A stretch of 63,656 nucleotides of DNA from a virus (IMGVR_UViG_3300042992_000919:1-63656); one strand, 5' to 3'; counted from the first letter of the stretch, positions 34,810 to 59,275 are shown. A program made the numbers and translations. The notes: generated by a model not told the origin, from the letters alone.

Positions 34810-34962
34810 ATGGCAACTAAAAAAAGTTCTTGTGCAAAACCTAAAATGAAACAAGGTGGATCTTTTCCTGATCTTAATAAAGATGGTAAAGTAACACAAG
34901 CTGATATCCTTAAGGGACGCGGTGTTTTTAAAAAAGGTGGTTCAACTAAAAAGAAAAAATAA
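34810..34962 (+). CDS. Lys-rich microprotein 1 (50 aa) with an EF-hand-like DLNKDGKVTQAD loop
   Basis: Hand translation MATKKSSCAKPKMKQGGSFPDLNKDGKVTQADILKGRGVFKKGGSTKKKK. Confidence 0.75.
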   Translation: MATKKSSCAKPKMKQGGSFPDLNKDGKVTQADILKGRGVFKKGGSTKKKK

Positions 34963-35126
34963 TGGCTACTAAAAAACATCCTGGCTTTAAAGCTGTACAA
35001 AAGAAAATAGCACAACAACAAGGTGTATCTATGGAATCTGCAGGAGCAATCCTTGCAAGTTCAAGTAGAAATGCATCTGCTGCAGCTAAAAAGAAAAATC
35101 CCCGTCTAAAAAAAGTAAGGGGGTAA
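34962..35126 (+). CDS. Lys/Ala-rich microprotein 2 (54 aa)
   Basis: MATKKHPGFKAVQKKIAQQQGVSMESAGAILASSSRNASAAAKKKNPRLKKVRG; TAATG coupling. Confidence 0.75.
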   Translation: MATKKHPGFKAVQKKIAQQQGVSMESAGAILASSSRNASAAAKKKNPRLKKVRG

Positions 35127-35151
35127 TTACTAACAATTAATTTTTATAACA

Positions 35152-35295
35152 ATGGCAACTAAAGTAAAAATGGCTCCAGCATCAAAAGGAGCTAAAAAAA
35201 TGAAAGAAGAAAAAATGATGATGCCTCCTATGAAAAAAGGTGGTTCAACACCTTCTTACAAAAAAGGTGGTTCAATGGGTAAAAAAATGAAGTAA
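35152..35295 (+). CDS. Lys/Met-rich microprotein 3 (47 aa)
   Basis: MATKVKMAPASKGAKKMKEEKMMMPPMKKGGSTPSYKKGGSMGKKMK. Confidence 0.75.
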   Translation: MATKVKMAPASKGAKKMKEEKMMMPPMKKGGSTPSYKKGGSMGKKMK

Positions 35296-35298
35296 TAG

Positions 35299-36003
35299 AT
35301 GAATACATCAACTATACAGATTAAAGTTAAGCAAAGACTTAACAAGTTAGCTTCTAATGATTATGATAACATTGAATGCTGGCAAATTGTAGAGGCTTTT
35401 AATAAAGCTCAACTACAATGGTGTCGTAGGCAACTTCATGGTTCTAATCTATTAAAAGAAGGTGACGAACAATCTAAACGTAGAGTTGATGATTTACAGA
35501 TTCTATTAACTCAAACTCCAACAAATGTAACAAATAGACAATTGTTTTTTGAAACAACAAATTGGCCTTCTGATTATATGGAGTTTAAAAAAGTGGTGGC
35601 ATTTGCTGATAGTAGTTGTTGCCCAGAACCCAGAAAACTCATGATTTACTTAACTGAAGAAGCAAATGTTGACCTTCATTTAACAGATCAAACTAGAAAA
35701 CCTAGTTTAGAATGGGGAGAAACATTTGCTACTTTAGTAGGTAATACAATTAGAATTTATACAAATAATGAATTTGATATTAATGATTGTTCTATAATGT
35801 ATTATAGAAAACCAGTGAATATTCAAATTCAAGGTTGTATAGATCCTTACACAGGTGTTGTATCTGGAGTAGAAATAAATCCTGAATTTAAAGATGATAT
35901 TGTTGAAGTTTTAATAGATGAAACAGTATCAATTTTAGCAGGAGATATAGAAGCTGTAATACAATATCAAAGAATGAATAATGAAACAGAAAAAAATAAT
36001 TAA
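35299..36003 (+). CDS. Tail ring/adaptor-like structural protein
   Basis: FNKAQ, MYYRKP and EVLIDETV patterns; crAss-like gene order. Confidence 0.65.
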   Translation: MNTSTIQIKVKQRLNKLASNDYDNIECWQIVEAFNKAQLQWCRRQLHGSNLLKEGDEQSKRRVDDLQILLTQTPTNVTNRQLFFETTNWPSDYMEFKKVVAFADSSCCPEPRKLMIYLTEEANVDLHLTDQTRKPSLEWGETFATLVGNTIRIYTNNEFDINDCSIMYYRKPVNIQIQGCIDPYTGVVSGVEINPEFKDDIVEVLIDETVSILAGDIEAVIQYQRMNNETEKNN

Positions 36004-36069
36004 AATTTGGATTTTAAATAAAAATCCCTTATAATATAATATTGTCTAACATTTTAAATTTTTGTAACT

Positions 36070-37266
36070 ATGTCTTATTTTAATCACGCTTTTCAAAAAG
36101 TATTTATTACAGAATCAGCATTGAATTCTGGAAATACTACAAATTTAACACCTGAGAACAATGTCTTTGGTATTTTTAATCCAAAAACATATGCTGCATT
36201 TGATACTGCAGTATCTCCTACTGTTCCCACTAATTTTATGATTGCCACTTCTTCAATTTATGGAGAAGATAAAATTGGTCCTTTTCATGGTGGGTATCAA
36301 GAATCTAACAAATCAAAAATTATTAACCCACGTTACATTAGTAAATTCTGGAAAGTAGAACAGGACGATTCTCAACAAGCACTTACAATTATTGGTAAAA
36401 CTGATGATGCATCAACTGATGCTTGTGCATGTCCAGTATTTTCTTGTGGAAAAACTTATCGTTTAAGAATTGATATTAAGGGTTCTCCTGCACTTCGTTT
36501 TTTAAATCACCAAGTTTACACTACACTTGATGCAAATACAGGATGTTGTGCTGACCCAGCTCTACCTGATAATGTTGATCCAGTAACTGTATTTATTCAA
36601 TGGGCTAAACAAATTATTGAGCATCCTTATCTTTCTCAATTTGTTTCTCCAACAGTTATCTATAGTTTAGATGGTGGTTCAACTTGGGAAACTCCATTGA
36701 CTACAGTTGCAGCAATGGATGCATATACACCTGTAGCTGCAGGAGATATTGATGATGTATGTGTAGGTGTTGAACTTCTTGGAGCATATCTAGATACAAA
36801 ATTTGGTAATTGTTCTTTCAAACCTACAGATCATTTTGAAAAAGAACCTATTCAAATTTATGCATCATTCGTAGATGATATTAATGATCCTTGTCAGAGT
36901 GAATCATTGTGTGTAACACAAGCAGTATTGGGAAGACAAGGTTGGGGATATGGTGAAACTATTATTCGTGAATTGATTCTTTCTGAATCTTATTCTCAAA
37001 ACTATTTTAATTGTGATCCACGTATCCGTGAAATTACTCAAGGTGATGCAATTTTTGATGTAGTTAATCGTAATGATAAATATGATGTATATTATTTACA
37101 ACATAGTGTACCACGTTTCAATAATCCAACTGGAACATTTGATAATGATCAATATTTATTGAAAATTGTAGTTCCTGATGGTGCAACATATCTTAATAAT
37201 TTTGTTACCTGGGTTGAAGATAACTGCGCATTAGCAGGTAATCCAGTAACTCTTGAAAATTTCTAA
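36070..37266 (+). CDS. Abundant structural protein (auxiliary capsid protein-like)
   Basis: 398 aa with its own terminator; position matches the auxiliary capsid gene of crAss-like phages. Confidence 0.6.
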   Translation: MSYFNHAFQKVFITESALNSGNTTNLTPENNVFGIFNPKTYAAFDTAVSPTVPTNFMIATSSIYGEDKIGPFHGGYQESNKSKIINPRYISKFWKVEQDDSQQALTIIGKTDDASTDACACPVFSCGKTYRLRIDIKGSPALRFLNHQVYTTLDANTGCCADPALPDNVDPVTVFIQWAKQIIEHPYLSQFVSPTVIYSLDGGSTWETPLTTVAAMDAYTPVAAGDIDDVCVGVELLGAYLDTKFGNCSFKPTDHFEKEPIQIYASFVDDINDPCQSESLCVTQAVLGRQGWGYGETIIRELILSESYSQNYFNCDPRIREITQGDAIFDVVNRNDKYDVYYLQHSVPRFNNPTGTFDNDQYLLKIVVPDGATYLNNFVTWVEDNCALAGNPVTLENF

Positions 37267-37287
37267 GTGCTACCTTAGACTAACATT

Positions 37288-37324
37288 AAAGGGGAGAGGG
37301 AGTTTTACTCTCCTCCCTTTTTTT
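37288..37324 (+). terminator. Rho-independent terminator
   Basis: GGGGAGAGGGAG-TTTTA-CTCTCCTCCC plus T7. Confidence 0.85.
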
Positions 37325-37351
37325 GTTAAATAAAAATTTGTAAATTATAAT

Positions 37352-37882: not shown

Positions 37883-37894
37883 AACCAAATAGCT

Positions 37895-38301: not shown

Positions 38302-38341
38302 TTAATTAAAAGTTTTTGTATATTATAATATATATTATAGC

Positions 38342-39877: not shown

Positions 39878-39889
39878 TAAATTAAAAAT

Positions 39890-43905: not shown

Positions 43906-44580
43906 ATGACAACAATAGGTGATATTGTATCTAGACTAAGAGGTGTATTTAAAGCTAATACTGAAGATGCTTTCATAACAGATCGTTTATTCTATAGTAT
44001 TGTTTTAAAGTATGCTCATCTATATATAAAAAGAGATAAGCAAATAGATAAACTATTAGCATTTAGCTCAATGGTTCAAACTATTCCATGTTTAGAATTA
44101 ATTGAAGTAGATAAAGTAAGTGATAGATGTTGTGCTGGAATTAAAAGTAATTGTATAATAATGAGGAGTAAAGAAAGGATTCCAGATATTATTGAATCAA
44201 CAGTAGGTCCTCTATTTAGATCAGTGGCTAGTTTAGATAATTCAGTGGAGTTTACATTTACAACAGCTACAACTTTTACATCAATAAGTAAGACTACAAC
44301 TTTTAAATATAATTCTACAAAGTATTACTGGTATGTGGATGGTTATCTATATTTTCCTAATGTAAATTTTGATTTTGTAAAAGTAGAAGGATTATTTCAA
44401 AATGATCTAGGATTAATTTCTTGTGATGAAAAAGAAAATTGTCTAATAAAACAAGAAAATACAACATTTATTCCTGAGTATTTATTAGCAGAAATAGAAA
44501 ATTCTGTAATAAAAGAACTCTCAGTTAGATTACAAATACCAACGGATCAAGCAGATGATAAACAAAATGTAAATAGATAA
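43906..44580 (+). CDS. Tail ring/tubular protein
   Basis: 224 aa, YWYVDGYLY...VEGLF pattern; gene order. Confidence 0.65.
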   Translation: MTTIGDIVSRLRGVFKANTEDAFITDRLFYSIVLKYAHLYIKRDKQIDKLLAFSSMVQTIPCLELIEVDKVSDRCCAGIKSNCIIMRSKERIPDIIESTVGPLFRSVASLDNSVEFTFTTATTFTSISKTTTFKYNSTKYYWYVDGYLYFPNVNFDFVKVEGLFQNDLGLISCDEKENCLIKQENTTFIPEYLLAEIENSVIKELSVRLQIPTDQADDKQNVNR

Positions 44581-45449
44581 TGAGCAGCTTATATAATTAT
44601 ACAATTAAGTATAGAACAATTGACGATTTGTTGGAAGACATTAATGTAGATTTAATGAATCCAGCAATGGATAAGACAATTGAACCTCAACAACTTATTA
44701 AAGTTGCCATTAGGGTAAATTATGACTTAGGTTTAAGAATTCAAGAAACAAGAGAAAGAGTGCTTGAGATTGAAAATGGTAAAACCAAGTTACCCACTAA
44801 TTTTTACACTTTAAATTTTGCTGTATTATGTGGATCATATACAGTAACATCTCCAGTTATTCAAGGAACACAAGTGGAAGAAATATTAGTGGATCAAGGT
44901 AATTGTGGTGCTGATCCAGATTGTTCTGCACCTTATACTTGTTTAAATGACTGTGGAGGTTATGTACAATTAATTCAGAGATTTAAAACTGAAACTAGAA
45001 CTTATAATACAGTGTTTCCATTACATCTTACTTCATCTAAAGAAATAAGTTGTGATTGTCCTAATACTAAATTATCTGTTCAAACAAATAGCGGATATAT
45101 TAAAGATGGTTTTTTATATGTAAACTTTGATACAGGTAATGTATATATTAACTATCAAAGTACAATGGAAGATGAAGAAGGTAATCTATTAGTAGCGGAT
45201 CATCCTATTCTAAATGAATACTATGAATATGCTTTAAAACAAAGAATTATTGAGAATAGAATAATGATGGGAGATCAAACTTCCGTACCTCAATTACAAT
45301 TAGTGGAACAGAGATTAAGAGCTGCAAGAAACAATGCTTTATCATTAGTGAATACACCAAATTTTGCAGAATTAAAAAAGATTTGGGAAATGAATAGAGG
45401 AGCAATGTACAATAGATATTACGATATGTTTAAATCATATAAACCATGA
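44580..45449 (+). CDS. Tail ring/tubular protein
   Basis: YIKDGFLYVNFDTGNVYINY...DEEG pattern; upstream of the tail stabilisation gene. Confidence 0.7.
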   Translation: MSSLYNYTIKYRTIDDLLEDINVDLMNPAMDKTIEPQQLIKVAIRVNYDLGLRIQETRERVLEIENGKTKLPTNFYTLNFAVLCGSYTVTSPVIQGTQVEEILVDQGNCGADPDCSAPYTCLNDCGGYVQLIQRFKTETRTYNTVFPLHLTSSKEISCDCPNTKLSVQTNSGYIKDGFLYVNFDTGNVYINYQSTMEDEEGNLLVADHPILNEYYEYALKQRIIENRIMMGDQTSVPQLQLVEQRLRAARNNALSLVNTPNFAELKKIWEMNRGAMYNRYYDMFKSYKP

Positions 45450-45808
45450 GAATCTCAAAACTTTTTAATATAGACATATATTCTTGTAAAGTTCAACTTA
45501 TTGTAACAGATGATGTATATAATGAAGAAAAAACATTATATGCAAAGTATGGTGAAGACCCTGAAGAATATATTGCATCAGATGGTATTACATTAAATTT
45601 TGAAAATGATATCTATTATGTAGTTTTCTCCACTAATTCTGTATCGCATAATTTGATTGCTCATGAATTATATCATTTAGTATGTTCTATTTGTGATTAT
45701 AGAAATATTGAAGAAGAAGAAAGTAGAGCCTGGTTATGTGGATACCTTACAGAAATGTTTTATAAATTCTTAGATAAGAAAAATATCACTATTAAACATG
45801 GCTTCTAA
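45446..45808 (+). CDS. Small zincin-like metallopeptidase
   Basis: IAHELYH (HExxH) plus downstream EESRAW glutamate. Confidence 0.7.
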   Translation: MRISKLFNIDIYSCKVQLIVTDDVYNEEKTLYAKYGEDPEEYIASDGITLNFENDIYYVVFSTNSVSHNLIAHELYHLVCSICDYRNIEEEESRAWLCGYLTEMFYKFLDKKNITIKHGF

Positions 45809-48800
45809 AGATAAAAATACTGGACAAAATCTAAATATAGAATCAGCTGTATTTAATAAGGGAATGATGATGGACTTTGATGATCTCATTGTTCCAGAAG
45901 GTGTATGGATTAGAGCTAGAAATGCGGTTAATAATTCCCAAAATGGGAACATTGGTGTTATTGGAAATGAACCATCTAATCAATTATGTCAAACTATTAG
46001 TTATACAGTAATTGGATTAATATATATTTCAGATGGAGTTTGGGCAGTATTTAGTACAGATGATCAAAATCACCAAATAGGAATATACAGAGAAGATAGT
46101 TGTTCATATACAGCTATACATACAGAACTTGTTGGAAGAAAAGGGTGCTTAAATTTTAGAAGAACAAATTTAATAAAGGGTGTTTCAAGAGAAAGATTTG
46201 ATTGTACAAGACAATTATATTGGGATGATGGATTTAATACATCAAGAACAATTGCTTTAAGACAAGATCTAACAAGATTTACAGATGAATATTATGTTAG
46301 AACAATTACAAATCAACAGACTGGAGAAGATGCTGATGAAGATTGTGAAATTCCAACATATGACTATACAACATTAAACTGTGAAAATCTTAGATTAAAT
46401 CCTTTATTTAATCCACCATGCGTTAAACTTAAAAGAGCTAGTTATTCTGGGACACTTTTAAATGGTACATATCAAGTGGCAATTGCATACGCAATTGATG
46501 GGCAAAAAGTCACTGATTATATAGCTTTAAGTAATCCACAATCTTTATATAAACACGAGAATTCTAATTCATCATTAGAAGTTGTTATTGAATCAATAGA
46601 TGAAAGATTTGAGCAATTTGAATTAGTGGTAATTAGTTTTTATAATGGACAGACTCAAGCAAAAAAAATGGGTTTATACAGTACTCAAACGGGTTCTGTT
46701 TTTATAGATATTATTTCAAATGAATTAGAAGCTGTACCAACTTCATTAATTCCATTAATATCTACTATATATGAAAAATCAGAAGGTATGTATAAAAATG
46801 GAGATTACTTATTAAGAGTGGCTCCAACATCATACTTTGATTTTAATTATCAACCTTTAGCAAATTTAATTGAAACAGAATGGTATGCAGCAGCATATCC
46901 AGAAGATTATTATTACAAAGGTGGAAATAAAACTACATATCTAAGAGACGAAGTATATTCATTCTTTATTAGATGGGTATATAACACAGGACAAAAATCA
47001 CCATCATTTCATATTCCAGGTAGAGCTAAAAATAGTAATGATTCTCAAATATTATCAGGATCAGCATTAAATACTGTTACAAATAATCCTGATGAAATTG
47101 ATAATCAAAGATGGAGATATGTTAATACTGCAACAAGAACATTTCCTACACCATCAAATTCTATAAATTATAATGTAGGATTTGATACAACAGATGATGG
47201 TGGAATTATTGTTGCAAAAGGAGACATGGCTTATTGGGAATCTACAGAAGAATATCCTAATTTTAGACCTGATATCTGGAATTCAAGTGCACATACTTGG
47301 ACTGGAGTAAATGGTACAAATCCAGAATATGATTTATGTGGTCAAAGAATTAGACATCATAAATTTCCAGATATGGATGTCATTCCACATTTTACAGCAG
47401 ATTATAGTGCAAATGGAGATTTAGTACCAGCATATTCATCTGCCAATCTTCAAGTATTACCCGGACTTAATGTACCAATAAATCCTGAAACATTTGTTTC
47501 TCCAACATGTGGAGAAGATGGAATGCCTAATGTATATAGAGTTTCAACAGGAACAAATTATAAAATAATATTACTTGGAGTTAATTTTAATAATATAAAA
47601 CCACCAGTAGATAATAACGGAGATCCTATTCCTGGAATTATTGGATATGAAATATTAAGAGGTAATAGATTAGGAAATAAAACTATTCTTGCAAAAGGTA
47701 TATTTAATACTTTAAGAGAATATGATTTACCAGAATACGCTTTAAATCCAAATTCTACATATAGAAGAAAAGGTTTATTTTATAATTATCCTTTTAATGA
47801 TCAAAGAGCAGATACATTATTATCTAGAATTAAAGTGGATGGTGGTTGTAAACCCTCTTGTGATTTTAATGAATATCCTTCATTAAATATTATTAGTACA
47901 GATTTTCTAGGATTTGATTCACCAGAAACAGAATTCTTTAATTCATTTTTAGATGTAGATGAGTTTAAAATAAATTGTACATATGTTGGATCTGCAGAAG
48001 GTAAATTTACAGAAGTAAAAGATCATCCAAAGCATGCATTACCAAATGATTTAGCATTAATTATATCTGGTATATTTGGAATTATAACAGCAGCTAATAC
48101 TACTATATTAAGTGGATTTTTATCAGGAACACCTGAATTTTCAACACAAGTTGGAAGTAACGCAACAGCAACAGATTCAAAACCTCCCATTGATAGTTTA
48201 CCTGCTGGAGTTGATGAAGTAGTTTCAGTGTTTATGAAACCTATTGCATTTATGTATTATACTATTCAAATTACACAAGGATACATAGATGCAATATTAG
48301 CTTTATTAGGAACTAGACAATATGCTTTACAACATAAAGCTTATTGTTTTTATTCAAGTATTGCTGACACATTTGGAACATCGGGTAAATTATTTAAAAT
48401 AAAAGATAGTAGATATATTGGACCAACAAGAGCTGAAATAAATGAAAAGTATATTATTAATAATCTATACAGAAATAATTTTACATTAATTCAAACAATG
48501 GGAGGGATCCCAAATGTAAGTACTATATATAAAGATACATCTAGATATAGTATTCATAAAGCAAATCTTTTTCCAATTACAAATACAAATATTTTAAAAT
48601 CAGATGGTATAACTTATGATGATCCAGTAAATAAAATTATAAATACTAGATCATCTACTTTATATGGATCATTAAAATTTAAAATAAGAAATATATATGG
48701 TCAATTAAATCAAATTAGACAAGTACCTATTTCAAATTGTTTACATCCAGCTCCAGCTATAAACTCTACAACATCAACAAGTTATACAATATTTGGTGGA

Positions 48801-50849
48801 GATAATTATGTAGGACGCTATACTAAAAAGAATACATTTTTCTTTTTCTATGATTGGTTGAATAAACAACCTGATGAATTTGAATATGACTATAGAAAAT
48901 ATGCAATGATTCCATATCCAAGATATTGGATCAATACACAAAAATATAATACTAGTCAATTAATTAATAATTTATTTCCAGGAATTATATGTAATGATTT
49001 TGATGATTCTGGAATTTTTCGTAATGAGAATCAAGAAATATTTGGAGAAATATTAGAAGATGCAACATATGAAGAAAGATTTCCAAGCGATAATGCATCT
49101 TTAACTAGAGATCAAGCCTTATGTTATACGGGCGGAGATATTAAAGAAATTTTATGTGGTAATGGTGATGCTTTATTAAGAATAGATGGTTGGTTCTATT
49201 TATTTTATTCAGGTGTTAAAGACTTTTTTGTTGAATCAGAAATTAATCTTGCTCAAAGAGATTATGATGATAAAATAGAAACTAAGCACTATGATAAATA
49301 TAATAGTATAGTTGACTATAATGATATGTTTAATTCCGATATTATAAAGGAAAGAAACTATTATAAATATGATCAAGCATTATCTGTAGATAGATTTTAT
49401 AATATCTATACAACATTTGGTGCATTACAACCAGTATGGTATGATCCTCAAGTTGCAGAAACATGTTATACATATTCTCCTAAGAGAGTTATATATTCTT
49501 TACCTGGAACAAAAGAAACTATCAAAGATTACTGGAGATATTTCTTGGCAAATAATTTTAAAGAATTCGGATCTAGAATTACATCTATAAGTCCAATATC
49601 TAAAAATGGTACAATGATCCATTTTAAAGATATTAGTCCAGTGCAATTTGTAGGTGTTGATACTCTCCAAACAGATCTAGGTACAAAAATTACAGTGGGT
49701 GATGGGGGTTTGTTTAATCAACCATTACAAAATATTGTAAATACAGATTCACCATATGAATATGGATCTTGTCAAGATAGATTATCAATTATAAATACAC
49801 CATTTGGAATATTTTGGATATCTCAAGAACAAGGTAAAATATTTAATTACTCTGGACAATTAGCAGAAATTTCTGCATCAGGTATGCGTTGGTGGTTTGC
49901 AAATAATTTACCATATCAACTTACTAAGTATTATCCAGATTTTGAATTAAGAGATAATCCAGTAATTGGTGTTGGTTGCCAAGCAATCTATGATAATAAG
50001 AATCAAATTATATACTTTACTAAGAAAGATTATATACCACGAGATACAAGTTTAATAACATATGTGAGTGGTAATATATTTAGAAAAGTTGGTACTAATC
50101 AACAAATTGAACTTGGTGATAAATTATATTTTGAAGAAGCTTCATGGACAATATCATACGATCCTAAATTAAAAATTTGGGTGTCGTTCCATGATTGGCA
50201 TCCACAATTAATGATTCCTGAACGTAACACTTTTGTTACAATTAAAAATAAAGGTTTCTGGAAACATAATAATACTTGCACTAGTTTCTGTAATTTCTAT
50301 GGTACAAATTATCCATTTGAAATTGAGAAAGCATTATCTACTGGACAATCTATAACAACATTAAGAAATGTTGAATATATGCTTGAGTCATATAGATATA
50401 CAGATAATTGTTTAGATAATCATCATTTACTAGATCATAACTTTGATAATATGATTGTCTATAATAGTGAGCAAATTTCTGGTGTACTCAATCTTATACC
50501 TCACACTAAAAATGATCCTATTACAATGCTAACATATCCGAGGATTAATCCGGATAGTATTGATGTATTATTTAGTAAAGAAGAAAATAAATATAGAGTA
50601 AATCAGTTTTGGGATATTACCTCTGATAGAGGAGAGTTTTCTGGTAATACAAATATATTATGGGAAACTGCAGCTAACGGATATTCTAAAGCTATTAGAC
50701 CAGGATCAGTGAATTATGCTAAATCTCCGTTAGAAAGAAAGAAGTTTAGACATTATGCCACCAGAGTTGTTCTAAGAAAAAATATTTCTAATGATGTTAA
50801 AATGTTTTATAAAGTGTTTAATCTTAAGCAAGCACAGTCTTACCGATGA
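45798..50849 (+). CDS. Tail stabilisation/muzzle-like protein (1683 aa)
   Basis: FNKGM..D...A.N N-terminus, beta-propeller-like repeats, WTISYDP...WVSFH; crAss-like gene order. Confidence 0.8.
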   Translation: MASKDKNTGQNLNIESAVFNKGMMMDFDDLIVPEGVWIRARNAVNNSQNGNIGVIGNEPSNQLCQTISYTVIGLIYISDGVWAVFSTDDQNHQIGIYREDSCSYTAIHTELVGRKGCLNFRRTNLIKGVSRERFDCTRQLYWDDGFNTSRTIALRQDLTRFTDEYYVRTITNQQTGEDADEDCEIPTYDYTTLNCENLRLNPLFNPPCVKLKRASYSGTLLNGTYQVAIAYAIDGQKVTDYIALSNPQSLYKHENSNSSLEVVIESIDERFEQFELVVISFYNGQTQAKKMGLYSTQTGSVFIDIISNELEAVPTSLIPLISTIYEKSEGMYKNGDYLLRVAPTSYFDFNYQPLANLIETEWYAAAYPEDYYYKGGNKTTYLRDEVYSFFIRWVYNTGQKSPSFHIPGRAKNSNDSQILSGSALNTVTNNPDEIDNQRWRYVNTATRTFPTPSNSINYNVGFDTTDDGGIIVAKGDMAYWESTEEYPNFRPDIWNSSAHTWTGVNGTNPEYDLCGQRIRHHKFPDMDVIPHFTADYSANGDLVPAYSSANLQVLPGLNVPINPETFVSPTCGEDGMPNVYRVSTGTNYKIILLGVNFNNIKPPVDNNGDPIPGIIGYEILRGNRLGNKTILAKGIFNTLREYDLPEYALNPNSTYRRKGLFYNYPFNDQRADTLLSRIKVDGGCKPSCDFNEYPSLNIISTDFLGFDSPETEFFNSFLDVDEFKINCTYVGSAEGKFTEVKDHPKHALPNDLALIISGIFGIITAANTTILSGFLSGTPEFSTQVGSNATATDSKPPIDSLPAGVDEVVSVFMKPIAFMYYTIQITQGYIDAILALLGTRQYALQHKAYCFYSSIADTFGTSGKLFKIKDSRYIGPTRAEINEKYIINNLYRNNFTLIQTMGGIPNVSTIYKDTSRYSIHKANLFPITNTNILKSDGITYDDPVNKIINTRSSTLYGSLKFKIRNIYGQLNQIRQVPISNCLHPAPAINSTTSTSYTIFGGDNYVGRYTKKNTFFFFYDWLNKQPDEFEYDYRKYAMIPYPRYWINTQKYNTSQLINNLFPGIICNDFDDSGIFRNENQEIFGEILEDATYEERFPSDNASLTRDQALCYTGGDIKEILCGNGDALLRIDGWFYLFYSGVKDFFVESEINLAQRDYDDKIETKHYDKYNSIVDYNDMFNSDIIKERNYYKYDQALSVDRFYNIYTTFGALQPVWYDPQVAETCYTYSPKRVIYSLPGTKETIKDYWRYFLANNFKEFGSRITSISPISKNGTMIHFKDISPVQFVGVDTLQTDLGTKITVGDGGLFNQPLQNIVNTDSPYEYGSCQDRLSIINTPFGIFWISQEQGKIFNYSGQLAEISASGMRWWFANNLPYQLTKYYPDFELRDNPVIGVGCQAIYDNKNQIIYFTKKDYIPRDTSLITYVSGNIFRKVGTNQQIELGDKLYFEEASWTISYDPKLKIWVSFHDWHPQLMIPERNTFVTIKNKGFWKHNNTCTSFCNFYGTNYPFEIEKALSTGQSITTLRNVEYMLESYRYTDNCLDNHHLLDHNFDNMIVYNSEQISGVLNLIPHTKNDPITMLTYPRINPDSIDVLFSKEENKYRVNQFWDITSDRGEFSGNTNILWETAANGYSKAIRPGSVNYAKSPLERKKFRHYATRVVLRKNISNDVKMFYKVFNLKQAQSYR

Positions 50850-53515
50850 AAAAACTATTTAGAAAAAATACAAAAGAGGGTTTATCAAATGGACCTAATG
50901 AAATAAAAACAACAGAATCTGGATTTATTATTTCAGAAAGAGGTCAATGGGATTTTCCAGGATCTCCTACAATGATTCCTTCTAATAATATTACAATGAA
51001 GGATGTACCATATCCTGTATTTGGATTTGATGATCTAGGATATAGTCAAATGATGTATCCTAATATGAATTATAAATTTCCAGGAAATCAAGTGTATGAG
51101 TTACCTATGGTAGAAAATGGTGGACAGTATAACCCAGATACAGATGAAATAATTGAATTTATAGATAATCTACCTAAAGCACAAGATGGTTTTGAAATGC
51201 AAGAGTTTAATCCATCAAAAGTAATACTTAGAGAAGTAGGTAATATTAGTAGGTATAATAATAATGAAGAGGGTATTATAAAAGAACCATATAAAAATTC
51301 ACATGAAGTTTATATGGATGATAAAAAAGGTTGGAGAAAAGTTTCATATGATGAATATGAAAACTATAAAAAATTATATCCTGGAGCAGATACAAAAAAA
51401 GGTTGGATAAGAAATCCAAAAAAAGAAACTAAAGGAAATTTATATCAAGGAGGTGGTAGTAAATATACTAATAAAGAAGGAGTCATAATGGGACCTATAA
51501 GAAATCCAGATGGTTCTTACACATTACCGGTTAGTACAAAAGGATTACCTCAAGTAAATTTACCCGAATATAATTTAAATTTAAATGCAGATCCTAATTA
51601 TGGACCAATTACTTTAGATGAGTATTTAAATAGTGGATTTAATCCTCTAAATTTATTATTACCAAATCCCGAACAAGGTGTAATAATTAGAGATGCAGAA
51701 GGTAATATAAGAGGTGAATCACCACTTAGTGCTTCACATCCTGAAATGTTAATGCTTCCAGCAAGTATTGGTTTAAAAAATAATCTTGGTAAATTTATAG
51801 ATGCTGTAAATCCTATAAGTGGATTTGGCCAAGTAGGAAGAAATGCAATTGGATCAGCATTAATTAGAAATGCAGTTAAGAAAGGAAAAATTAAATCAAA
51901 TGATGTTCCTAAAATACAACGTATTGATCCTATAAATAGAAGTACTGTTGGAAAACAAAATGATATTATTGCCAATATGTCAAAAGATGAATATGATACT
52001 TTTATTAAACAAATATATACACAAAATAGAGAAGCATTTGATAATCCATTAATAGAGTTTAAATCAAGTCAACCATCAAGTTTTATTAAAGGTATAGGTG
52101 CAGATGAAAAACAAGGATTATTATTTAAAGAAAAATTTTGTCTGCCAGGAAGTGAATGTGCTAAAACAGCAAATTCAGTGGCAAATAGAATCTACACTGA
52201 TATAACAGGTAAAGAATTTGATGTAATGGGTAATGCTCATAATGCTTGGCATACAGAAGATCAAATGACAAGATCTGGTGCTATACCGGTTTATGGTAGA
52301 GATGAATTAAAAGTAGGTGATAGATTATTAATGGGTAATGGTGTTGATCAATCAACATATATGCCTGGATATAATGCAGATCCAACTATAAGACATGCTG
52401 GAACTTATGCTGGAATAATGATGCATGAAGGAAAACCTTATCAAATGTTATTTGAAAGTGGTAGAAATAATCCAATGCTTATAAATAGTATTGATTATCC
52501 AATCACTGGACCAAATTCATTAAAAAAAGCATTTAGATCTGAGCAATTTACTGGAGATGAATTTGGAGCAAATCTTGTAGATAAAAATATTAGATATGCA
52601 TATAGAGATAAACCATCAGTAGCTACATATAGTTCTAAAAATAAAACTGCACAAGATGTTTTATCAGAAGGTCAAAACTATAGAGAAACTATTAAAAGAC
52701 AATATGATATTACTAATGATGAGTTTGATGAATTATTAAATAGTTTAGTTGGTATTGGTGCACAAGAAACAAAACTTAATTCAGCATTACCTGCTTCAAA
52801 ATTAACGAAAGCAAAAATTACATTACAAAACAAATTAGTGGATGCAGGTTTATCTAAACCAATTAAACAAGCAATTAATACTGGAAAAAAAGCATTAAAC
52901 AGTTTATCAACTAAATCAAATTTACCTAGTTATCCTGGTTCAGCTAAAATTGAAATGGATGCAGCTAAACTTGCACAGCAGGAAGGTATACCATTTAATG
53001 AAGCATTAGAAACTATAAAAAATCAGTATGCTCCAAAACAAAAATTTACACCTAGTACAGTTGAACCATCTAAAGGAATGTTTAGACAAAAATTTCAAAC
53101 TGAATCTGATAGATTAGCAGATGTAAATAAAAATATAGGATCAAAAGAATCATTAAGAAATGCATTAGGATTAATGTCTGAAAACTATGATAAAGTAAGA
53201 AAGATGTATCCAGATGCTTCACCAAGACAATTAGTAGATTTAACTACACTAATGTGGAATAGTCCTGGTAAAGTAAAGAATAAAGAACTAGTTGATTTTT
53301 ATTTATTTGGAAAAAATAATCCAGATCCAAGCAGATTTAATTTTGATTATTTAAGAAAAGTAAATGACTATAGAAATAATCTAATAGATATTCAACCTAA
53401 AGGTGTAGAAGATTATACGAGATTATTTAGAAATAATGAATATCCAGAAATTCAATATCAATCTGGTGGCAGTTATAATGCTAATACTGATGAATTTTTA
53501 GGTTTTATAGACTGA
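50846..53515 (+). CDS. Virion cargo protein with putative CHAP/NlpC-P60-like and lytic-transglycosylase-like domains
   Basis: ECAKTAN...RHAGTY...FESG; GAQET...SKGMF...MWNSPG...YLRKV. Confidence 0.6.
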   Translation: MKKLFRKNTKEGLSNGPNEIKTTESGFIISERGQWDFPGSPTMIPSNNITMKDVPYPVFGFDDLGYSQMMYPNMNYKFPGNQVYELPMVENGGQYNPDTDEIIEFIDNLPKAQDGFEMQEFNPSKVILREVGNISRYNNNEEGIIKEPYKNSHEVYMDDKKGWRKVSYDEYENYKKLYPGADTKKGWIRNPKKETKGNLYQGGGSKYTNKEGVIMGPIRNPDGSYTLPVSTKGLPQVNLPEYNLNLNADPNYGPITLDEYLNSGFNPLNLLLPNPEQGVIIRDAEGNIRGESPLSASHPEMLMLPASIGLKNNLGKFIDAVNPISGFGQVGRNAIGSALIRNAVKKGKIKSNDVPKIQRIDPINRSTVGKQNDIIANMSKDEYDTFIKQIYTQNREAFDNPLIEFKSSQPSSFIKGIGADEKQGLLFKEKFCLPGSECAKTANSVANRIYTDITGKEFDVMGNAHNAWHTEDQMTRSGAIPVYGRDELKVGDRLLMGNGVDQSTYMPGYNADPTIRHAGTYAGIMMHEGKPYQMLFESGRNNPMLINSIDYPITGPNSLKKAFRSEQFTGDEFGANLVDKNIRYAYRDKPSVATYSSKNKTAQDVLSEGQNYRETIKRQYDITNDEFDELLNSLVGIGAQETKLNSALPASKLTKAKITLQNKLVDAGLSKPIKQAINTGKKALNSLSTKSNLPSYPGSAKIEMDAAKLAQQEGIPFNEALETIKNQYAPKQKFTPSTVEPSKGMFRQKFQTESDRLADVNKNIGSKESLRNALGLMSENYDKVRKMYPDASPRQLVDLTTLMWNSPGKVKNKELVDFYLFGKNNPDPSRFNFDYLRKVNDYRNNLIDIQPKGVEDYTRLFRNNEYPEIQYQSGGSYNANTDEFLGFID

Positions 53516-53553: not shown

Positions 53554-56500
53554 ATGAGAAAAGCATTAGTTAAAAGAGGTGATAAAATTGTTGAGGTAAC
53601 AATTGATGAAAACTCCTATAAAACAGGTGGTTCTAATCTTATTAAAAGAAAAGATGGATCATATTCACAAAGAGGACTCTGGGATAATATTAGAGCAAAT
53701 AAAGGTTCTGGTAAAAAACCCACTAAACAAATGCTTGAACAAGCAAGAAAAATTAAAAATAAAAAACAAACTGGTGGAGAAGAAATGTATATACCAGATA
53801 CTGGTGTAGAACAATTCGCTCCAGATTATAGTTGGTTTGAAGGTAATCCTAATACTGCTGCTCCAGGTAATATTGTATCTTGGCCATCATATCCTATTAA
53901 AGTTTCCGGAGCTACTCAAAATCAACCACCAATAGTTGAAGATGAAGTTCCACAAAATATGATGCCACAAAGAGTGGCACCAAGTCGTGGCTCTGTATAT
54001 TTTAATAGAGGACAGTATCCCGGAAATTCAATGATCTATTTAGATAAACCAAGTTATCAATATGAAGAATTTGAACCTAATAGAAATTCTAGATTATCTC
54101 AATGGTTTAATAATTTAGCTAATAATGTAGGTGACGGAGTTGAAAATTTTGGAGACTTTATTGGAAATATAGAAATGCCTAAAAGAAAAAGAAGAGGTTT
54201 TCTAAAAAAATTATTTAGAGGTAAAGGTAAAGGTTTATTAAATTGTAAACCTGGAACAGCTTGTGCTAGATTTCAAGAAGGTGGTGAGGAAAATCAATTT
54301 GAAGAATTACTTGATCAAATAGAAGATGCTTTAGAACAAGATGCAAATCCACAAGAAATACTAGACCAACTAGTAGGAATGGGTGTGGATCAAAACCAAG
54401 CTCAAGAATTAATTCAAGAAGCAATGCAAGATCTTCAAGAAGATGCAAAAGAAAAAGAAGGTAATGAAGAAGAGGAGGATAATGGTGAAGAAAAAGAAAT
54501 GGGAGAAGATGATGAAATGTATGCAAGTGGAGGTTCTTATAGAGTATCTAAAACTAATGAACGTAAAGGTAAAACTCATAAGGTAGTGGGTCCTGGTGGT
54601 GTTACTAAATACTTTGGAGATCCAAAACTTGGAGAAAAAAGTAAATCTAAATATGGTAAAAAAGGTTTTTATGCTAGACATAAAAAGAATCTAGCTAAGA
54701 ATCCATTCTTTAGAGCATATGCTAGAGCAACATGGGCAGAAGGTGGTGAACCTTCATACATGAATGAACCAGAATATAAAACAAATTCATTCATTTCTAA
54801 AGTAAAAGAAATGGGTCAAATGGAAAATGACAGGAATTTGTATAATGATATTATGGAACAATCTCAACAGATGCTAATGCAAATGGGAGGATCTCCAGAT
54901 AATTATGGTTATGTAGGTAATCCGCAATTAGATATGTATCAACAGGCTTTTAATGAATTTAATTCAAAAGGAAATGTTGAAGGAGCAGTATTTGGGGCAT
55001 TAAATAATGCCGGATTAAAATTAGAAAAAGGAGTTGAAATGGCTGCTAATGTAATAGTGCCAGGTAGTGGAAAACTTGTTAAAGCAGGTTTTGATGCACA
55101 AAGACCCAAGTCAATGACTGATTCAACATCACAAGGTATATCAGGTGATATGTTAGGCTCTATGTTACAAGGTGCTATTAGCGATCCATCACAACTTGCA
55201 GGTCTTATAGTAAGAAGAGGCGGTACACTAAATAGATTTCAAATTGCAGGATCTGTTCCTGGATATGTTTCTCCTTATACCACTGATCCATTCACAAATC
55301 AAGGAATATCTACAAATTTAACATTAGAAGAATTCGTTAAAAAATTTGAAAAACAAAATCCTTCTTATGGTAAACAAGTTATTCCTCAACAACCTCAACA
55401 ATATGGTATTACAAATCAAAGTTTAAATACACCTGCACTTGAACCAATAAACTATTTTGATGAACAAGGAAATTATACAAATTTTCAAGGACCATTAAAT
55501 CAAGCAGAACAATCTGAAATTACAACAGAATCAACTAATCCTGTAAAAGACCCATTATTAAAACCACCGGTTCAAAAAAATAATAATATATCATTCCAAA
55601 ATGTAGTATCTGGTTTACCTGCAGTTGCTTCAATTATTACATCAATGGGTAATAGAGGTAAAACTAAAAAATTAGAGGCTCAAATGTCTGATATGACAAT
55701 GGCTAATAATGTATTTACAGCAGATGATACATTAGATAGAGGAGACTTTGAAAGAAATACTGGTAGACGAAAACCTAATCAATATATAATGGGATCACTT
55801 CAAGGTGTACCAGCATTGTCATCTGCTAAATATGGGGGTATTCAAAAACCTGGAGTATATATGTCTTATCCTACTGCCACTCCAGAATCTGTAGTATATG
55901 GTAAACCAGATAAAAAAATGTCTAATACATTATCACCAGTAGATAGAGATAAAGCAAATCTAGAAGCTGAAGTTGGTGAAACAGTTATGACACCTGCAGG
56001 TGATGATGGTATTCCTAAATTTTTTAAAGTTGGCGGTAAAAGACATAGTGAAGGAGGAACACCTTTATATCTTCCAGAAAATTCATTTATATTCTCAGAT
56101 ACTAGATCAATGCTATTAGGAAAGAATATGCTTGAAGAATTTGGTATTATAGGTAAAAAGAAAAAGACACCTGCAGAAGTTGCTAAAACTCTTGGTAAAG
56201 GTTATGAGAAATATGTAAAAACTATTCAAGATCCTAACTCAGATTCTATTGAAAGAAAAACAGCAGAGATGATGATACAAACTCAAATAAATAATTTGGG
56301 TAAATTAGCATTAGCTCAAGAATCTAAAAAAGGATTTCCACAAGGTATCCCAATGATATCTGTTCCATATATGGCATCAATAGGTGTAAATGCAGAACAA
56401 GTGTTACCACAGCAAGAACAAATACCGCAAGGTATGCCACAAGGTAATATGATACCTCCTGAAATGATGCAACAAATGCCTATGGCTAAATATGGTTTAC

Positions 56501-57666
56501 AGAAATATCAAACTGGAAGAGAAAAGCAAACTGATATATTAGGTATGGATCCTAATGCTCCATTTCCTACATCTAGTCCTTCAGCTCCAGGAGAAAGAAA
56601 TATAGCACAGAAAATTCTTGGACCATTAGCAAATTATTTTACATCTAATCCAGAAGAAGAAACACCTATTGAAACAAATGTTCAAACTGTTGAAGTTATT
56701 TCTCCAGTAAAAGGATTTAAATCAATGGAAGATTTGGATGAATTTATCACAAAAGGTGATGAATTTGGACAAGATTTTAATGCATTATACAATGATTATT
56801 CTCAAACAATTAAAACAATTGATGAGTTAAGAACAGGATTAATTGAAGGTTGGATTCCATTAGATGTATATGAACAATATAAAGAAGGAATTGATAGTAG
56901 AATTGGAGAAATAAAAACTGAAATTGATGAAAGTCAAAAACGAATTCCTTGGTATAAAAGCTGGACTGGAAATCCTGGATCAACAGCTGATAAACTACAA
57001 GATATAGCTGGAATTTTAGATGAAGAAAAAGAAAAGTTAAAATTTAGAGCATCTGATTTAAGAAAATTTAAAGATTTTCAAAATAATGTTTCTTTTCTTG
57101 AAACAGAAAAACAAAATATTATTCAACTTTTAAATTCAGATATCGATAACTTAGAAAAAGTACGTCTTAAAAGAAGATTGACAGACCTTAATGATGCTTT
57201 AAATTATGAAACTGATAGAACAAATCAGTTTGGAAATAGAGCATTTAATAGAAGTAAACCTATGGAAAATGTAGGTTATACAAATGAAGGACCAATATAT
57301 AGAGGATTAAAAGAAGCTAATAGAAGTAAATATAAAAGATATTATGAACCAGATGTATATAGACAGTATGGTGATATAGGAATCAGAAAATTTACATATG
57401 ATGATTATTTAAAACAATATGAAAGTAAACCTATTGGTACTACAGTTAAACCAGCATATGAATCACAACAAGGTTCTTTAAATGGTAATTTATCAGATGA
57501 TATATTATCTACTGCTCCTGAACAACAAGATACTGTTCCAGTAGAAACTGCACCCGTAAGTACTCCAAGTAAACAAACTAAATCAGATACTCCTAAATCT
57601 AAAACTAATCAATCAGTTCCATCTAAATTTAAAAAAATAGAAGGTGACGATTTAAATTTATTTTAA
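53554..57666 (+). CDS. Large modular low-complexity virion cargo protein (1370 aa)
   Basis: ANLEAEVGE...GGKRHSEGG...IFSD motif recalled from crAss-like cargo proteins; many xxxGG motifs. Confidence 0.7.
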   Translation: MRKALVKRGDKIVEVTIDENSYKTGGSNLIKRKDGSYSQRGLWDNIRANKGSGKKPTKQMLEQARKIKNKKQTGGEEMYIPDTGVEQFAPDYSWFEGNPNTAAPGNIVSWPSYPIKVSGATQNQPPIVEDEVPQNMMPQRVAPSRGSVYFNRGQYPGNSMIYLDKPSYQYEEFEPNRNSRLSQWFNNLANNVGDGVENFGDFIGNIEMPKRKRRGFLKKLFRGKGKGLLNCKPGTACARFQEGGEENQFEELLDQIEDALEQDANPQEILDQLVGMGVDQNQAQELIQEAMQDLQEDAKEKEGNEEEEDNGEEKEMGEDDEMYASGGSYRVSKTNERKGKTHKVVGPGGVTKYFGDPKLGEKSKSKYGKKGFYARHKKNLAKNPFFRAYARATWAEGGEPSYMNEPEYKTNSFISKVKEMGQMENDRNLYNDIMEQSQQMLMQMGGSPDNYGYVGNPQLDMYQQAFNEFNSKGNVEGAVFGALNNAGLKLEKGVEMAANVIVPGSGKLVKAGFDAQRPKSMTDSTSQGISGDMLGSMLQGAISDPSQLAGLIVRRGGTLNRFQIAGSVPGYVSPYTTDPFTNQGISTNLTLEEFVKKFEKQNPSYGKQVIPQQPQQYGITNQSLNTPALEPINYFDEQGNYTNFQGPLNQAEQSEITTESTNPVKDPLLKPPVQKNNNISFQNVVSGLPAVASIITSMGNRGKTKKLEAQMSDMTMANNVFTADDTLDRGDFERNTGRRKPNQYIMGSLQGVPALSSAKYGGIQKPGVYMSYPTATPESVVYGKPDKKMSNTLSPVDRDKANLEAEVGETVMTPAGDDGIPKFFKVGGKRHSEGGTPLYLPENSFIFSDTRSMLLGKNMLEEFGIIGKKKKTPAEVAKTLGKGYEKYVKTIQDPNSDSIERKTAEMMIQTQINNLGKLALAQESKKGFPQGIPMISVPYMASIGVNAEQVLPQQEQIPQGMPQGNMIPPEMMQQMPMAKYGLQKYQTGREKQTDILGMDPNAPFPTSSPSAPGERNIAQKILGPLANYFTSNPEEETPIETNVQTVEVISPVKGFKSMEDLDEFITKGDEFGQDFNALYNDYSQTIKTIDELRTGLIEGWIPLDVYEQYKEGIDSRIGEIKTEIDESQKRIPWYKSWTGNPGSTADKLQDIAGILDEEKEKLKFRASDLRKFKDFQNNVSFLETEKQNIIQLLNSDIDNLEKVRLKRRLTDLNDALNYETDRTNQFGNRAFNRSKPMENVGYTNEGPIYRGLKEANRSKYKRYYEPDVYRQYGDIGIRKFTYDDYLKQYESKPIGTTVKPAYESQQGSLNGNLSDDILSTAPEQQDTVPVETAPVSTPSKQTKSDTPKSKTNQSVPSKFKKIEGDDLNLF

Positions 57667-57667
57667 T

Positions 57668-59275
57668 ATGTATACTCCATATAATATTTTTGATTATAAC
57701 TTACCTAATTATCAAACTGCTGGTGAAACTGGTAAACCTGATCCAGGTAGATTTAAACCTGGAGATCTTGTTGAAGTAAATGGTGAAAAAAAAGTTGTAA
57801 CTGGTTGGGATCCGGTAAATGGTAAATATATTACTGAAGTTTCAGATGGTAAAACAAATGTTGCAGTAGATAAAGGCTCAGTTAAAAAATATACAGATCA
57901 GGGTATTAATATAGATTTTGGTAATGTTGGTGAAACTAGATATGTTGATACACAACCAGCTGAAACTACAGCAGGTAGATTTGGTGATGCCACTAAAAAC
58001 GAACAAGGATGGAAAGACACTTGGAAAGGAGCATATCCAGATTATGATAATTTAGTAGCATCACTACCTAAATATGGTAATAAAGAAAATCCTGAAGTTA
58101 AAAAATTTCAGAAATGGTTAAATGAAAATTATATACCAAGTAGTGTTAAAACAATTAATGAACAAAGAGTAAAAGCAGGATATAAACCATTTACTGCAGA
58201 TGAAACACAAAAACTTGAAAATGATTTAAAAACAGATTATGGTTTTAATCCATCTAAAAGAGGTAAAGCATATGATGGTTTATGGGGAACATTTACTTCA
58301 TCTAGAAGACCATTAAATTATAATATTGATCCATTAGATAAACCTACACCACCACAACCTACAATAGTACAGACACCACCACAACAAACTACTCAACCAA
58401 TAATACCTGGTAAACTTGGTAGAAAAGGAACTATACCACCTAAAGAATGGTTTTCACAAGATGTGATGAATTTCATGAATACTTTAGCAGTTCCACCTAA
58501 AAAATATTTACCTTGGGCTCCCACTGTTGATTTACAAGAACCAGAATATACATTGCTAGATCCTACTTGGCAATTACAAAATAATGCTGCATTAATGAAT
58601 CAGCAATTACAAGGACTTGGAGCATTTGGTAATTCACAATCTTATCTTGCTAATGCAACAAGTTTAGCTGGTAAAGCATCTGAACAATCTCAAAATGTTT
58701 TAGCAGAATATGATGCTAGAAATGCAATGATTCAAAATCAAGGTGAACAAGCTAAAACAGCAGTAAGAAATCAAGAGAATCTTGCAAACGCAGAAAGAAC
58801 AAAAAATCTATATGATGGAACTACTATTGCTAATCAGCAATATGATAATTCAAGAAGACAATATCTAGATAGAATTAATAAAGCTTTAGTTACAGGAACA
58901 ACAAATGCTGCTATGGCTTATAATACTAATTTCTTGAATCCTTATGAATATTATATTGATCCTAGTTCTGGAGGTATGATATTAGGAAATCCTCAAAATT
59001 ACCAAGATTTAATACCGAGTGAAACAGATGAGGTAAAAATTAGAGAAGGTAATTTAGATAGAATATTAATAGATCCAAGATATAAAAATTTTTCTCCTGA
59101 AGACAAATTAAAAATATTTGAAGATTTATATCCAACACAAACATATCCATCAGGTACATATCCATCTCAAAGAAGATCTAGAAGACAACCATCTATTGAT
59201 GATAATTATATGAGAATGATGCAACAGATGATGTATGGAAATCAAACATATCCAAACTATAATACATTTGGATAA
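57668..59275 (+). CDS. Putative ejected cargo protein
   Basis: Q/N/A-rich coiled-coil C-terminal half; position. Confidence 0.65.
   Translation: MYTPYNIFDYNLPNYQTAGETGKPDPGRFKPGDLVEVNGEKKVVTGWDPVNGKYITEVSDGKTNVAVDKGSVKKYTDQGINIDFGNVGETRYVDTQPAETTAGRFGDATKNEQGWKDTWKGAYPDYDNLVASLPKYGNKENPEVKKFQKWLNENYIPSSVKTINEQRVKAGYKPFTADETQKLENDLKTDYGFNPSKRGKAYDGLWGTFTSSRRPLNYNIDPLDKPTPPQPTIVQTPPQQTTQPIIPGKLGRKGTIPPKEWFSQDVMNFMNTLAVPPKKYLPWAPTVDLQEPEYTLLDPTWQLQNNAALMNQQLQGLGAFGNSQSYLANATSLAGKASEQSQNVLAEYDARNAMIQNQGEQAKTAVRNQENLANAERTKNLYDGTTIANQQYDNSRRQYLDRINKALVTGTTNAAMAYNTNFLNPYEYYIDPSSGGMILGNPQNYQDLIPSETDEVKIREGNLDRILIDPRYKNFSPEDKLKIFEDLYPTQTYPSGTYPSQRRSRRQPSIDDNYMRMMQQMMYGNQTYPNYNTFG

Follow-up and report, generated by a model that had tools for sequence, protein, structure and literature searches.

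The 63,656-nucleotide (nt) contig IMGVR_UViG_3300042992_000919, analysed here over its whole length and referred to as the window, is a genome fragment of a distant, uncultured crAss-like phage. Its genes c1, c2 and c3, which begin immediately 3' of the muzzle gene, and two microprotein genes in its head module encode chains of small exchangeable modules, with one short peptide closing each module. These proteins are probably loaded into the virion and injected. This peptide, which we call the tag or seam peptide, consists of an aromatic residue or methionine, one of A/Q/K/E, any residue, Gly-Gly (GG), any residue and an aliphatic residue. Tags mark the points at which cassettes are swapped between phages with almost identical capsids. 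As to function, the single most likely reading, to which we assign a probability of about 0.38, is that tags are maturation cleavage sites.

A tag confined to the cargo block

An earlier reading of the window, made without database searches (the sequence-only reading), had listed hydrophobic-x-x-GG pentapeptides and related forms, and all of these are present in the open reading frames (ORFs) named, i.e. microproteins 1 and 3, c1, c2 and c3. It had also stated that a motif frequency explained by glycine content would count against it. Glycine content does explain plain GG pairs, of which the window cargo set (2891 amino acids, aa) contains 20 against 21.3 expected, i.e. no enrichment (4 against 5.8 expected from Gly content in c1, 11 against 11.4 in c2). 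It does not explain their context: [FYWM]xxGG occurs 12 times in the cargo set against 2.7 expected, a count reached by 0 of 500 shuffles, and 11 times against 13.0 expected in the other 57 ORFs (17,445 aa). For [FYWM][KQRAE]xGG the counts are 12 against 0.9 in the cargo set and 1 against 2.6 in other ORFs. Since this narrower pattern was defined post hoc, from the window data, replication was sought.

One relative of the window is G001, an 84-kb IMG/VR contig whose capsid protein is 98% identical to that of the window (31260-32876). In its cargo set, [FYWM]xxGG occurs 16 times against 3.4 expected and [FYWM][KQRAE]xGG 15 times against 1.1. Independent loci were retrieved by means of a 120-aa ORF with an HExxH motif, which in the window precedes the muzzle gene. 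Among 80 loci, 18 with distinct sequences carry this ORF directly before a muzzle-sized ORF. In these 18 loci, [YMFW][AQKERG]xGG is found twice before the muzzle gene (5.6 expected in 51,254 aa), 9 times in the muzzle proteins (5.7 expected in 28,989 aa) and 128 times after the muzzle gene (13.2 expected in 29,379 aa), and all 18 have at least one post-muzzle tag. The muzzle protein of the window itself has 7 GG pairs against 6.8 expected. In homologues of c2 (n=119) even plain GG is in excess, 1257 against 789 expected. Enrichment after the muzzle gene, presence of tags in all 18 loci and the excess of GG together lead to the conclusion that the tag is real, under selection and confined to the cargo block. 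The comparison of cargo with other proteins, proposed along with the sequence-only reading, thus came out in its favour. A strong tag within the first 45 residues occurs in 6 of 34 post-muzzle ORFs and in none of 180 upstream ORFs; an N-terminal leader with a tag is therefore frequent, and we rejected it as a general rule.

To specify the consensus, 1209 de-duplicated GG contexts from 267 proteins were compiled, with the conserved core and the c3-like part of 120 c2-family proteins excluded. Position -3 from the first Gly is Y, M or F in 47% of contexts (about 4-fold enriched), position -2 is A, Q, K or E in 62%, and position +2 favours I, V, L and M (about 1.5- to 2.8-fold). Positions -6 to -4 display a weaker L-P-K signal, giving an LPKAQxGG form. 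Information amounts to 0.65, 0.40 and 0.30 bits at positions -3 to -1 and to 0.21 and 0.28 bits at +1 and +2. Proline right after GG is at background level (76 of 1209, 6.3% against 5.9%; 6% of 499 strong tags). The literature searched did not yield a description of this peptide, and the pattern is apparently undescribed.

Modules and their exchange

The product of c2 (53554-57666, plus strand, as are all features given with a length below; 1370 aa) carries the tags YKTGG (53617-53631), KQTGG, FQEGG (54271-54285), YASGG (54520-54534) and WAEGG (54733-54747), and further MQMGG, VRRGG, AKYGG, FQIAG and YQTG. Three more GG peptides had been missed by the sequence-only reading: VGPGG lies within the conserved basic module (see below), FKVGG and HSEGG within the modelled fold of the c2 core. 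The first tag closes a leader of 26 aa (53554-53631). Of the 13 closest homologues, 12 keep this leader, with its Y/F-K-x-GG ending, almost unchanged whichever module comes next; the remaining one, P0004, starts further in. Basic module 1 follows (53632-53778, 49 aa, residues 27-75, net charge +11, closed by KQTGG). In 4 of the 13 homologues (P0002, P0005, P0006 and P0010) it is replaced by another module after the same tag. The replacing module is Pfam DUF5872 in P0002 and P0010, and the homologue search marked PF19197 on P0005 and P0006 too. A first guess that basic module 1 of the window resembles DUF5872 was discarded, as it is true only of this alternative module in relatives. The next, variable module (53779-54285, 169 aa, closed by FQEGG) is missing from four relatives (P0003, P0008, P0009 and P0012), in which KQTGG and FQEGG are merged into one tag.

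An acidic module (54286-54534, 83 aa, residues 245-327, net -28, closed by YASGG) is followed by the conserved basic module (54535-54747, 71 aa, residues 328-398, net +15, closed by WAEGG) and by more modules closed by MQMGG, the double tag VRRGG/FQIAG and AKYGG (54748-55839). The net charges bear out the sharp compositional borders that had been noticed in c2. The conserved basic module has 283 matches at an expectation value (E) <= 0.001 in a search of 1.84 billion cluster representatives. Among the 150 matches listed, identity is 57-95% (mostly 60-79%), and the module is found at any position in proteins of 125-2409 aa. Basic modules thus also occur in small proteins elsewhere; the sequence-only reading had noted their likeness in size to the free microproteins. 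In all 147 representatives examined, which are the 150 listed less three already in the set, x-x-GG directly follows the module; on its upstream side, some examples have EYGKGG, MMANGG or LPEAGSG forms.

The cargo-like c1 protein (50846-53515, 889 aa) has the tags VENGG, LPKAQDG, YQGGG and YQSGG, a conserved N-terminal domain and a 14-aa C-terminal peptide beyond the last tag. Its homologue in G001 (2007 aa, 31% identity) has about 480 aa inserted directly ahead of a GG-x-YNPxTDExxxFxD peptide, and both proteins finish in GG and a related 14-residue peptide. Residues of about 420-575 of c1 give only NlpC/P60/CHAP-like leads in structural comparison (template modelling score 0.43-0.56), so that c1 may carry a part resembling cell-wall hydrolases of this type.

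The c3 protein (57668-59275, 535 aa) begins with a 19-residue leader closed by the tag variant YQTAG (residues 15-19, 57710-57724), where G001 has YNPGG, and also contains SSGGM. In the window it has a gene of its own, whereas 97 of 120 family proteins examined carry a c3-like part fused C-terminally to the c2 core, some of them with KQTAG or KQKAG upstream of it. In the clade of the window c3 has been split off, and tagged modules totalling about 760 residues have been placed before the core.

Further, C-termini of post-muzzle proteins from different phages (L010-L088) display few recurring peptides. EIEFID and EIEYLD occur after the last GG, and the window c1 (53471-53512) ends in GFID; other endings are QGYQFEIL and NWL-x-x-Y-L/N, and relatives of about 800 aa frequently end in GG-MFVIGSNLMPQLFL. 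These peptides may represent a second class of conserved end signal.

In the head module, microprotein 1 (34810-34962, 50 aa, net +12) is composed of a leader closed by MKQGG (34846-34860), a 27-aa cassette, FKKGG (34927-34941) and the tail STKKKK. The cassette (34861-34941, residues 18-44) holds DLNKDGKVTQAD, which has the look of an EF-hand/dockerin calcium loop; the match of microprotein 1 to Pfam Dockerin_1 is weak (E 0.0086) and under the family cut-off. Microprotein 2 (34962-35126, 54 aa, net +12) has no tag. Microprotein 3 (35152-35295, 47 aa, net +12) has MKKGG (35230-35244) and YKKGG (35257-35271), separated by 4 residues. A Pfam scan of the three microproteins and of the two isolated basic modules of c2 gave nothing reaching the cut-off. 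In G001 the leader (PKMKxGG) and the tail (KKGG-S-x-KKKK) of microprotein 1 are retained around a different cassette; microprotein 2 is almost identical and microprotein 3 conserved. Between a 338-aa ORF and microprotein 1 the window has a 256-aa Gly-rich ORF (34027-34797, 19.9% Gly, GGD/GGS-type repeats), which is missing in G001, where microprotein 1 directly follows the 338-aa ORF.

Comparison of c2 between the window and G001 (65% identity, 1370 and 1728 aa, respectively) reveals the same kind of exchange. At the seam that the window marks with the single tag YASGG, G001 has two tags, MAYGG and FKEGG, enclosing about 345 additional residues, and conservation is lost right after MQMGG and regained before VRRGG and AKYGG. 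Rescanning viral contigs with the c2 alignment yielded no relative beyond G001. BLAST comparison of the 13 closest c2 homologues gives 222 distinct internal boundaries, 95 of which are no more than 6 residues away from a GG; of random positions, 14% are that close. Because the boundaries share ancestry, this proportion is a description and not a probability. Gain, loss and swapping of modules as units, which had been suggested as a check, is thus seen in the insert of G001, the collapse of KQTGG and FQEGG, and the swap in microprotein 1. With capsid proteins at 98% identity and c2 and c1 at 65% and 31%, cargo turns over far faster than the capsid shell.

Gene setting and likeness to crAss001 gp45

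Matches to Pfam and PHROGs place a large terminase at 24593-26788, a portal at 26967-29720, a major capsid protein of Crassvirus type at 31260-32876 and tail ring proteins 2 and 1, in this order, at 43906-45449 (Ring_2 and Ring_1). The muzzle protein (45798-50849, 1683 aa) matches Pfam crAss_MUZ at E 2.8e-36. The window thus has Ring_2, Ring_1 and crAss_MUZ (43906-50849) followed by c1, c2 and c3; the corresponding order in crAss001 is gp43, gp44, gp45, gp46. The cargo genes of the window therefore lie after the muzzle gene, where cargo protein 1 of Crassvirales is expected.

The c2 protein contains a conserved core segment (55840-56553), for which homologues were searched and an AlphaFold2 model was built. 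Its family comprises at least 1401 proteins at E <= 0.001, mostly of about 800 aa with the core close to the N-terminus. In the model (predicted local distance difference test score, pLDDT, 76.3; 139 residues at 90 or above), the best match among solved structures is 7qog_M, residues 425-546 (Z-score 5.8, root-mean-square deviation 3.8, 95 of 126 residues aligned, 20% identity), with the next match at Z 4.5. Foldseek gives E 1.5, and hhalign of the core with gp45 is weak (E 0.025) and falls on the same stretch. Residues 425-552 of 7QOG chain M are the portal-bound domain of cargo protein 1 (C1, gp45) of Bacteroides phage crAss001. Bayfield et al. (2023, PMC10172136) describe gp45 as a single chain that extends from the tail into the capsid; portal and ring proteins R1/R2 hold it, and residues 214-245 and 425-552 are resolved.

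Several sequence searches gave no link. Pfam PF25725 (crAss_CARG1), which covers gp45 residues 424-555 and matches gp45 at E 2.3e-66, has no match at E <= 1 in the c2 core or in its relatives P0015, P0025, P0040 and P0058, and none at E <= 10 in the whole of c2. A tblastn search of 50,697 records of isolated phages retrieved nothing for the c2 core, and sequence searches of solved structures with c1, c2 and the family profile retrieved nothing useful. In our reading c2 is probably a distant counterpart of crAss001 C1 and not a shown member of its family. The two differ in the absence of a PF25725 match from c2, in its additional N-terminal residues of tagged modules, and in that c2 is separate from the c3 part, which in most relatives is joined to the core. 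They are alike in that both genes belong to the block that starts behind the muzzle gene and in that gp45 has an excess of GG (21 against 13.3 expected; gp44, gp46 and gp47 have no excess) and tag-like peptides, FDTGG, SAYGG, FAEGG, KAFGG, FAYGG and KAKGG; its tags lie near residues 20, 209, 263, 332, 373, 562, 821 and 828. The tag-like peptides flank the resolved segments from outside: GG at 209 and 263 surround residues 214-245 and GG at 562 lies beyond 425-552, with AFGG, at the edge of the portal-bound domain, as the exception. The seam peptide is not described in the available text of the gp45 paper (PMC10172136). Gene position and the modelled fold of the c2 core, whose best match is the portal-bound domain of gp45, make it plausible that c1-c3 are cargo, in line with the sequence-only reading.

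Other genes of the contig include a GroES-like co-chaperonin (2740-3030, phrog_3188, E 9e-11) and a PhoH-like protein (23257-23904, Pfam, E 2.1e-48). A series of big Gly-rich ORFs (8-16% Gly) occupies 3370-19871, 5' of the packaging genes; two of them have weak tail-fibre PHROG matches, and their numerous GG pairs are hardly ever in tag context. No match for the ORF at 36070-37266 was found by tblastn against the 50,697 phage records.

Cleavage site, uncut joint or docking handle

If tags are maturation cleavage sites, cargo would be made and loaded as precursors, for which the short N-terminal leaders might be loading signals. Cutting at or just after the tag, inside the capsid or after injection, would be the work of a protease that the phage carries or makes, and would set free pieces of basic, acidic and enzymatic character. 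Until it is cut away, the acidic module (-28) would offset the charge of the basic modules (+11 and +15).

The cleavage reading is favoured because tag enrichment is specific to the cargo block, because tags flank every module and insertions, deletions and swaps stop at them, and because most information lies N-terminal of GG, as in protease sites. It is also favoured by short leaders and tails beyond the outermost tags (leaders of 26 aa in c2, 19 aa in c3 and 17 aa in microprotein 1, a C-terminal peptide of 14 aa in c1, and 6-7 aa in the microproteins) and by adjoining modules of opposite charge, as in precursors of cationic peptides. Finally, the tags of gp45 flank segments seen apart in tail and capsid, and cutting would explain the presence of gp45 parts on both sides of the portal.

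In adenovirus, African swine fever virus (ASFV), T4 and phiKZ-like phages, internal virion proteins are cleaved at short repeated motifs that lie where modules meet. Adenovirus protease cuts (M/L/I)xGG-X and ASFV pS273R cuts GG-X, while T4 gp21 and phiKZ-type prohead proteases act on internal virion proteins. The system described here is similar in that precursors of internal and in part strongly basic proteins are interspersed with a short motif ending in GG or another fixed dipeptide, and short leaders and tails lie beyond the outermost sites. It differs from the adenoviral code in register, as adenovirus has M/L/I at -2 (P4) and the tag has Y/M/F at -3 from the first Gly and A/Q/K/E at -2. 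It differs from Gly-Gly maturation systems in that proline after GG is tolerated and that scans of the window and G001 found no cognate protease. Of the adenovirus/ASFV-type code proposed in the sequence-only reading, the short GG-ending motif at module borders thus stands; the register is one place off, proline is not avoided and the protease was not found.

Closer to the present case, Drobysheva et al. (bioRxiv 10.1101/2020.03.07.982082, available part), working on Cellulophaga phage phi14:2, describe fused crAss-like virion proteins as 'likely cleaved'; they also refer to a packaged protein that contains a zincin-like protease domain. Common to both systems are packaged fused crAss-like proteins proposed to be cleaved and a possible source of activity, a packaged metalloprotease domain there and HExxH motifs in giant ORFs of G001 here. 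In contrast, their proposal concerns RNA polymerase proteins, with no cleavage motif named in that part of the preprint, and the giant ORFs of G001 have no GG excess.

These giant ORFs follow the cargo genes of G001 (64325-75175, 3616 aa; 75178-82725, 2515 aa) and have 7 and 4 GG pairs against 8.7 and 5.2 expected, respectively. Each contains one HExxH, at residues 626 and 841; the region of the first has weak matches (E 1e-4 to 9e-4) among giant proteins from gut crAss-like phages.

The other candidate is the 120-aa HExxH protein (45446-45808) encoded between the ring-1 and muzzle genes, a putative small metallopeptidase. Residues H73, E74, H77, E91 and E92 are invariant in 9 of 9 sequences. 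In an AlphaFold2 model (pLDDT 92.1) the motif lies on helix 68-85 and the EE pair opens helix 91-111, which agrees with the zincin feature of HExxH and a third ligand on the next helix. Comparison of the model with solved structures by Foldseek and VIA-align wide gave nothing above noise: in the fold search the best Z-score is 5.3, to unrelated chains, with 1oz9 (Z 4.3) and 1yqy (Z 4.0) not above noise. The Atlas lead, Peptidase_M78, scores 0.88, under the 0.9 bar. Its sole sequence match among solved structures is a capsid-protein chain (E 1e-4), which was taken as chance. A complex prediction of the protein with c2 residues 1-80 and zinc returned a score of 0.00, i.e. no answer, and weighs neither way. 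The protein has 90 relatives in IMG/VR, found in crAss-like loci and in another gene context. In the latter (about 36% identity; L019, L021-L045 and others) the gene is preceded by a 332-aa ORF and followed by ORFs of about 308 and 286 aa. Both candidates for a seam protease, the 120-aa protein and the HExxH motifs of the giant proteins, would by their motifs be of zincin type and not Gly-Gly cysteine proteases. The ORF between the portal and capsid genes (29989-31209) was also considered as a protease and rejected; it is acidic, E/K/Q-rich by eye and without family, and was read as scaffold-like.

A number of observations weigh against cleavage. Scans with Pfam, PHROGs and NCBIfam, covering the window ORFs and, in G001, the cargo and giant ORFs, found no peptidase family (clan CE/CA, adenain-, pS273R-, Ulp-like or other named), where the window is a fragment, G001 is estimated to be 70% complete and many ORFs lack any family. 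In its other gene context the HExxH gene is not followed by a muzzle-sized ORF, and no tag-rich ORFs occur in the available sequence. Proline after GG is at background level, and Gly-Gly cysteine proteases are not known to cut before proline. Tandem tags are only 4-8 residues apart and would, if cut, give tiny products. No cleavage product was seen anywhere, including the available main texts of the crAss001 papers. The available text of the crAss001 atlas (PMC10172136) contains none of the strings 'cleav', 'proteoly' and 'protease' and treats gp45 as one chain. The model of 7qog_M is continuous from residue 425 through A-F-G-G, though this GG looks like part of the fold. In the virion gel of the first crAss001 paper (available part), bands of 85 and 100 kDa would be compatible with uncut gp45 (90.8 kDa).

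Taken in full, the proposal is tentative and, we think, somewhat improbable in all its parts together: polyprotein cargo would be cut at aromatic-x-x-GG seams by a non-canonical virion protease, probably of zincin type, releasing small basic, acidic and enzymatic effectors, and universal seams would permit quick cassette swaps. The cut might fall one residue past GG, before the conserved aliphatic residue; as a speculation, a zincin cutting before this residue at +2 would be compatible with proline at +1.

We also considered that the seam stays uncut, which is unlikely but comes next. The tag would then be a short cap with a Gly-Gly hinge that lets modules fold and unfold separately, pack densely and thread unfolded through portal and tail. 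Such a joint would allow any pair of cassettes to be combined harmlessly, and would be preserved by selection as cassettes turn over. Hydrophobic residues at -3 and +2 fit a local capping structure, proline is tolerated after GG and no protease was found; gp45 is described as a single chain in tail and capsid without mention of cleavage (PMC10172136, available text), its tags are not seen in the structure, as would be the case for flexible linkers, and GG pairs within the modelled c2 core fall between the strands of the model. On the contrary, a passive hinge needs neither a conserved aromatic residue or Met nor A/Q/K/E, the motif is near-absent upstream of the muzzle gene, and tags close to protein ends (microproteins 1 and 3, the c2 leader and the c1 tail) join nothing sizeable.

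Less probable again is a docking handle, in which the tag would bind a repeated site on the inner capsid, portal, ring, scaffold or a loading factor and several tags would add up. Specificity of the tag to cargo proteins suits such a role, as do tandem tags, which suggest avidity, the conserved N-terminal leaders and C-terminal peptides adjoining tags, and the hold of portal and R1/R2 on crAss001 gp45 (PMC10172136, available text). However, the bound and resolved parts of gp45 (214-245 and 425-552) are modules, with the tags just outside save AFGG at the edge. This argues against ordered tag docking in the mature particle, and capsid docking as put forward in the sequence-only reading is not upheld there. 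In addition, a known binding partner is absent, and tags flanking every module exceed what loading needs.

A DNA-level recombination signal or composition effect without a role in the protein is very improbable: cassette borders do coincide with tags and three microprotein tags have 15 nt in common (AAA AAA GGT GGT TCA), but the remaining tags use varied codons with no long common DNA word, for which reason a recombination signal is rejected, the amino-acid motif is kept across phages whose HExxH proteins are 34-47% identical to that of the window, and composition-keeping shuffles give 0.9-2.7 occurrences against 12 seen.

Crassvirales are among the most abundant gut phages and also frequent in seawater. 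The crAss001 structure has raised the question of how several megadaltons of protein are loaded, stored and ejected by these phages, and the seam peptide offers a handle on it. Podovirus ejection proteins (T7 gp14-16, P22 gp7/16/20) are likewise internal proteins that leave ahead of the DNA, and differ in that neither modular cassettes nor a seam peptide is reported for them in the available text of PMC10172136. The seam peptide predicts how cargo proteins divide into functional units, and its abundance after the muzzle gene and rarity before it provide a sequence rule for recognizing cargo genes in metagenomes. Cargo evolves by cassette exchange, much faster than the capsid. If the seams are indeed cut, this would be, to our knowledge, the first Gly-Gly maturation code in tailed phages, and phages with near-identical capsids would quickly exchange effector cassettes as a plug-and-play injected arsenal.

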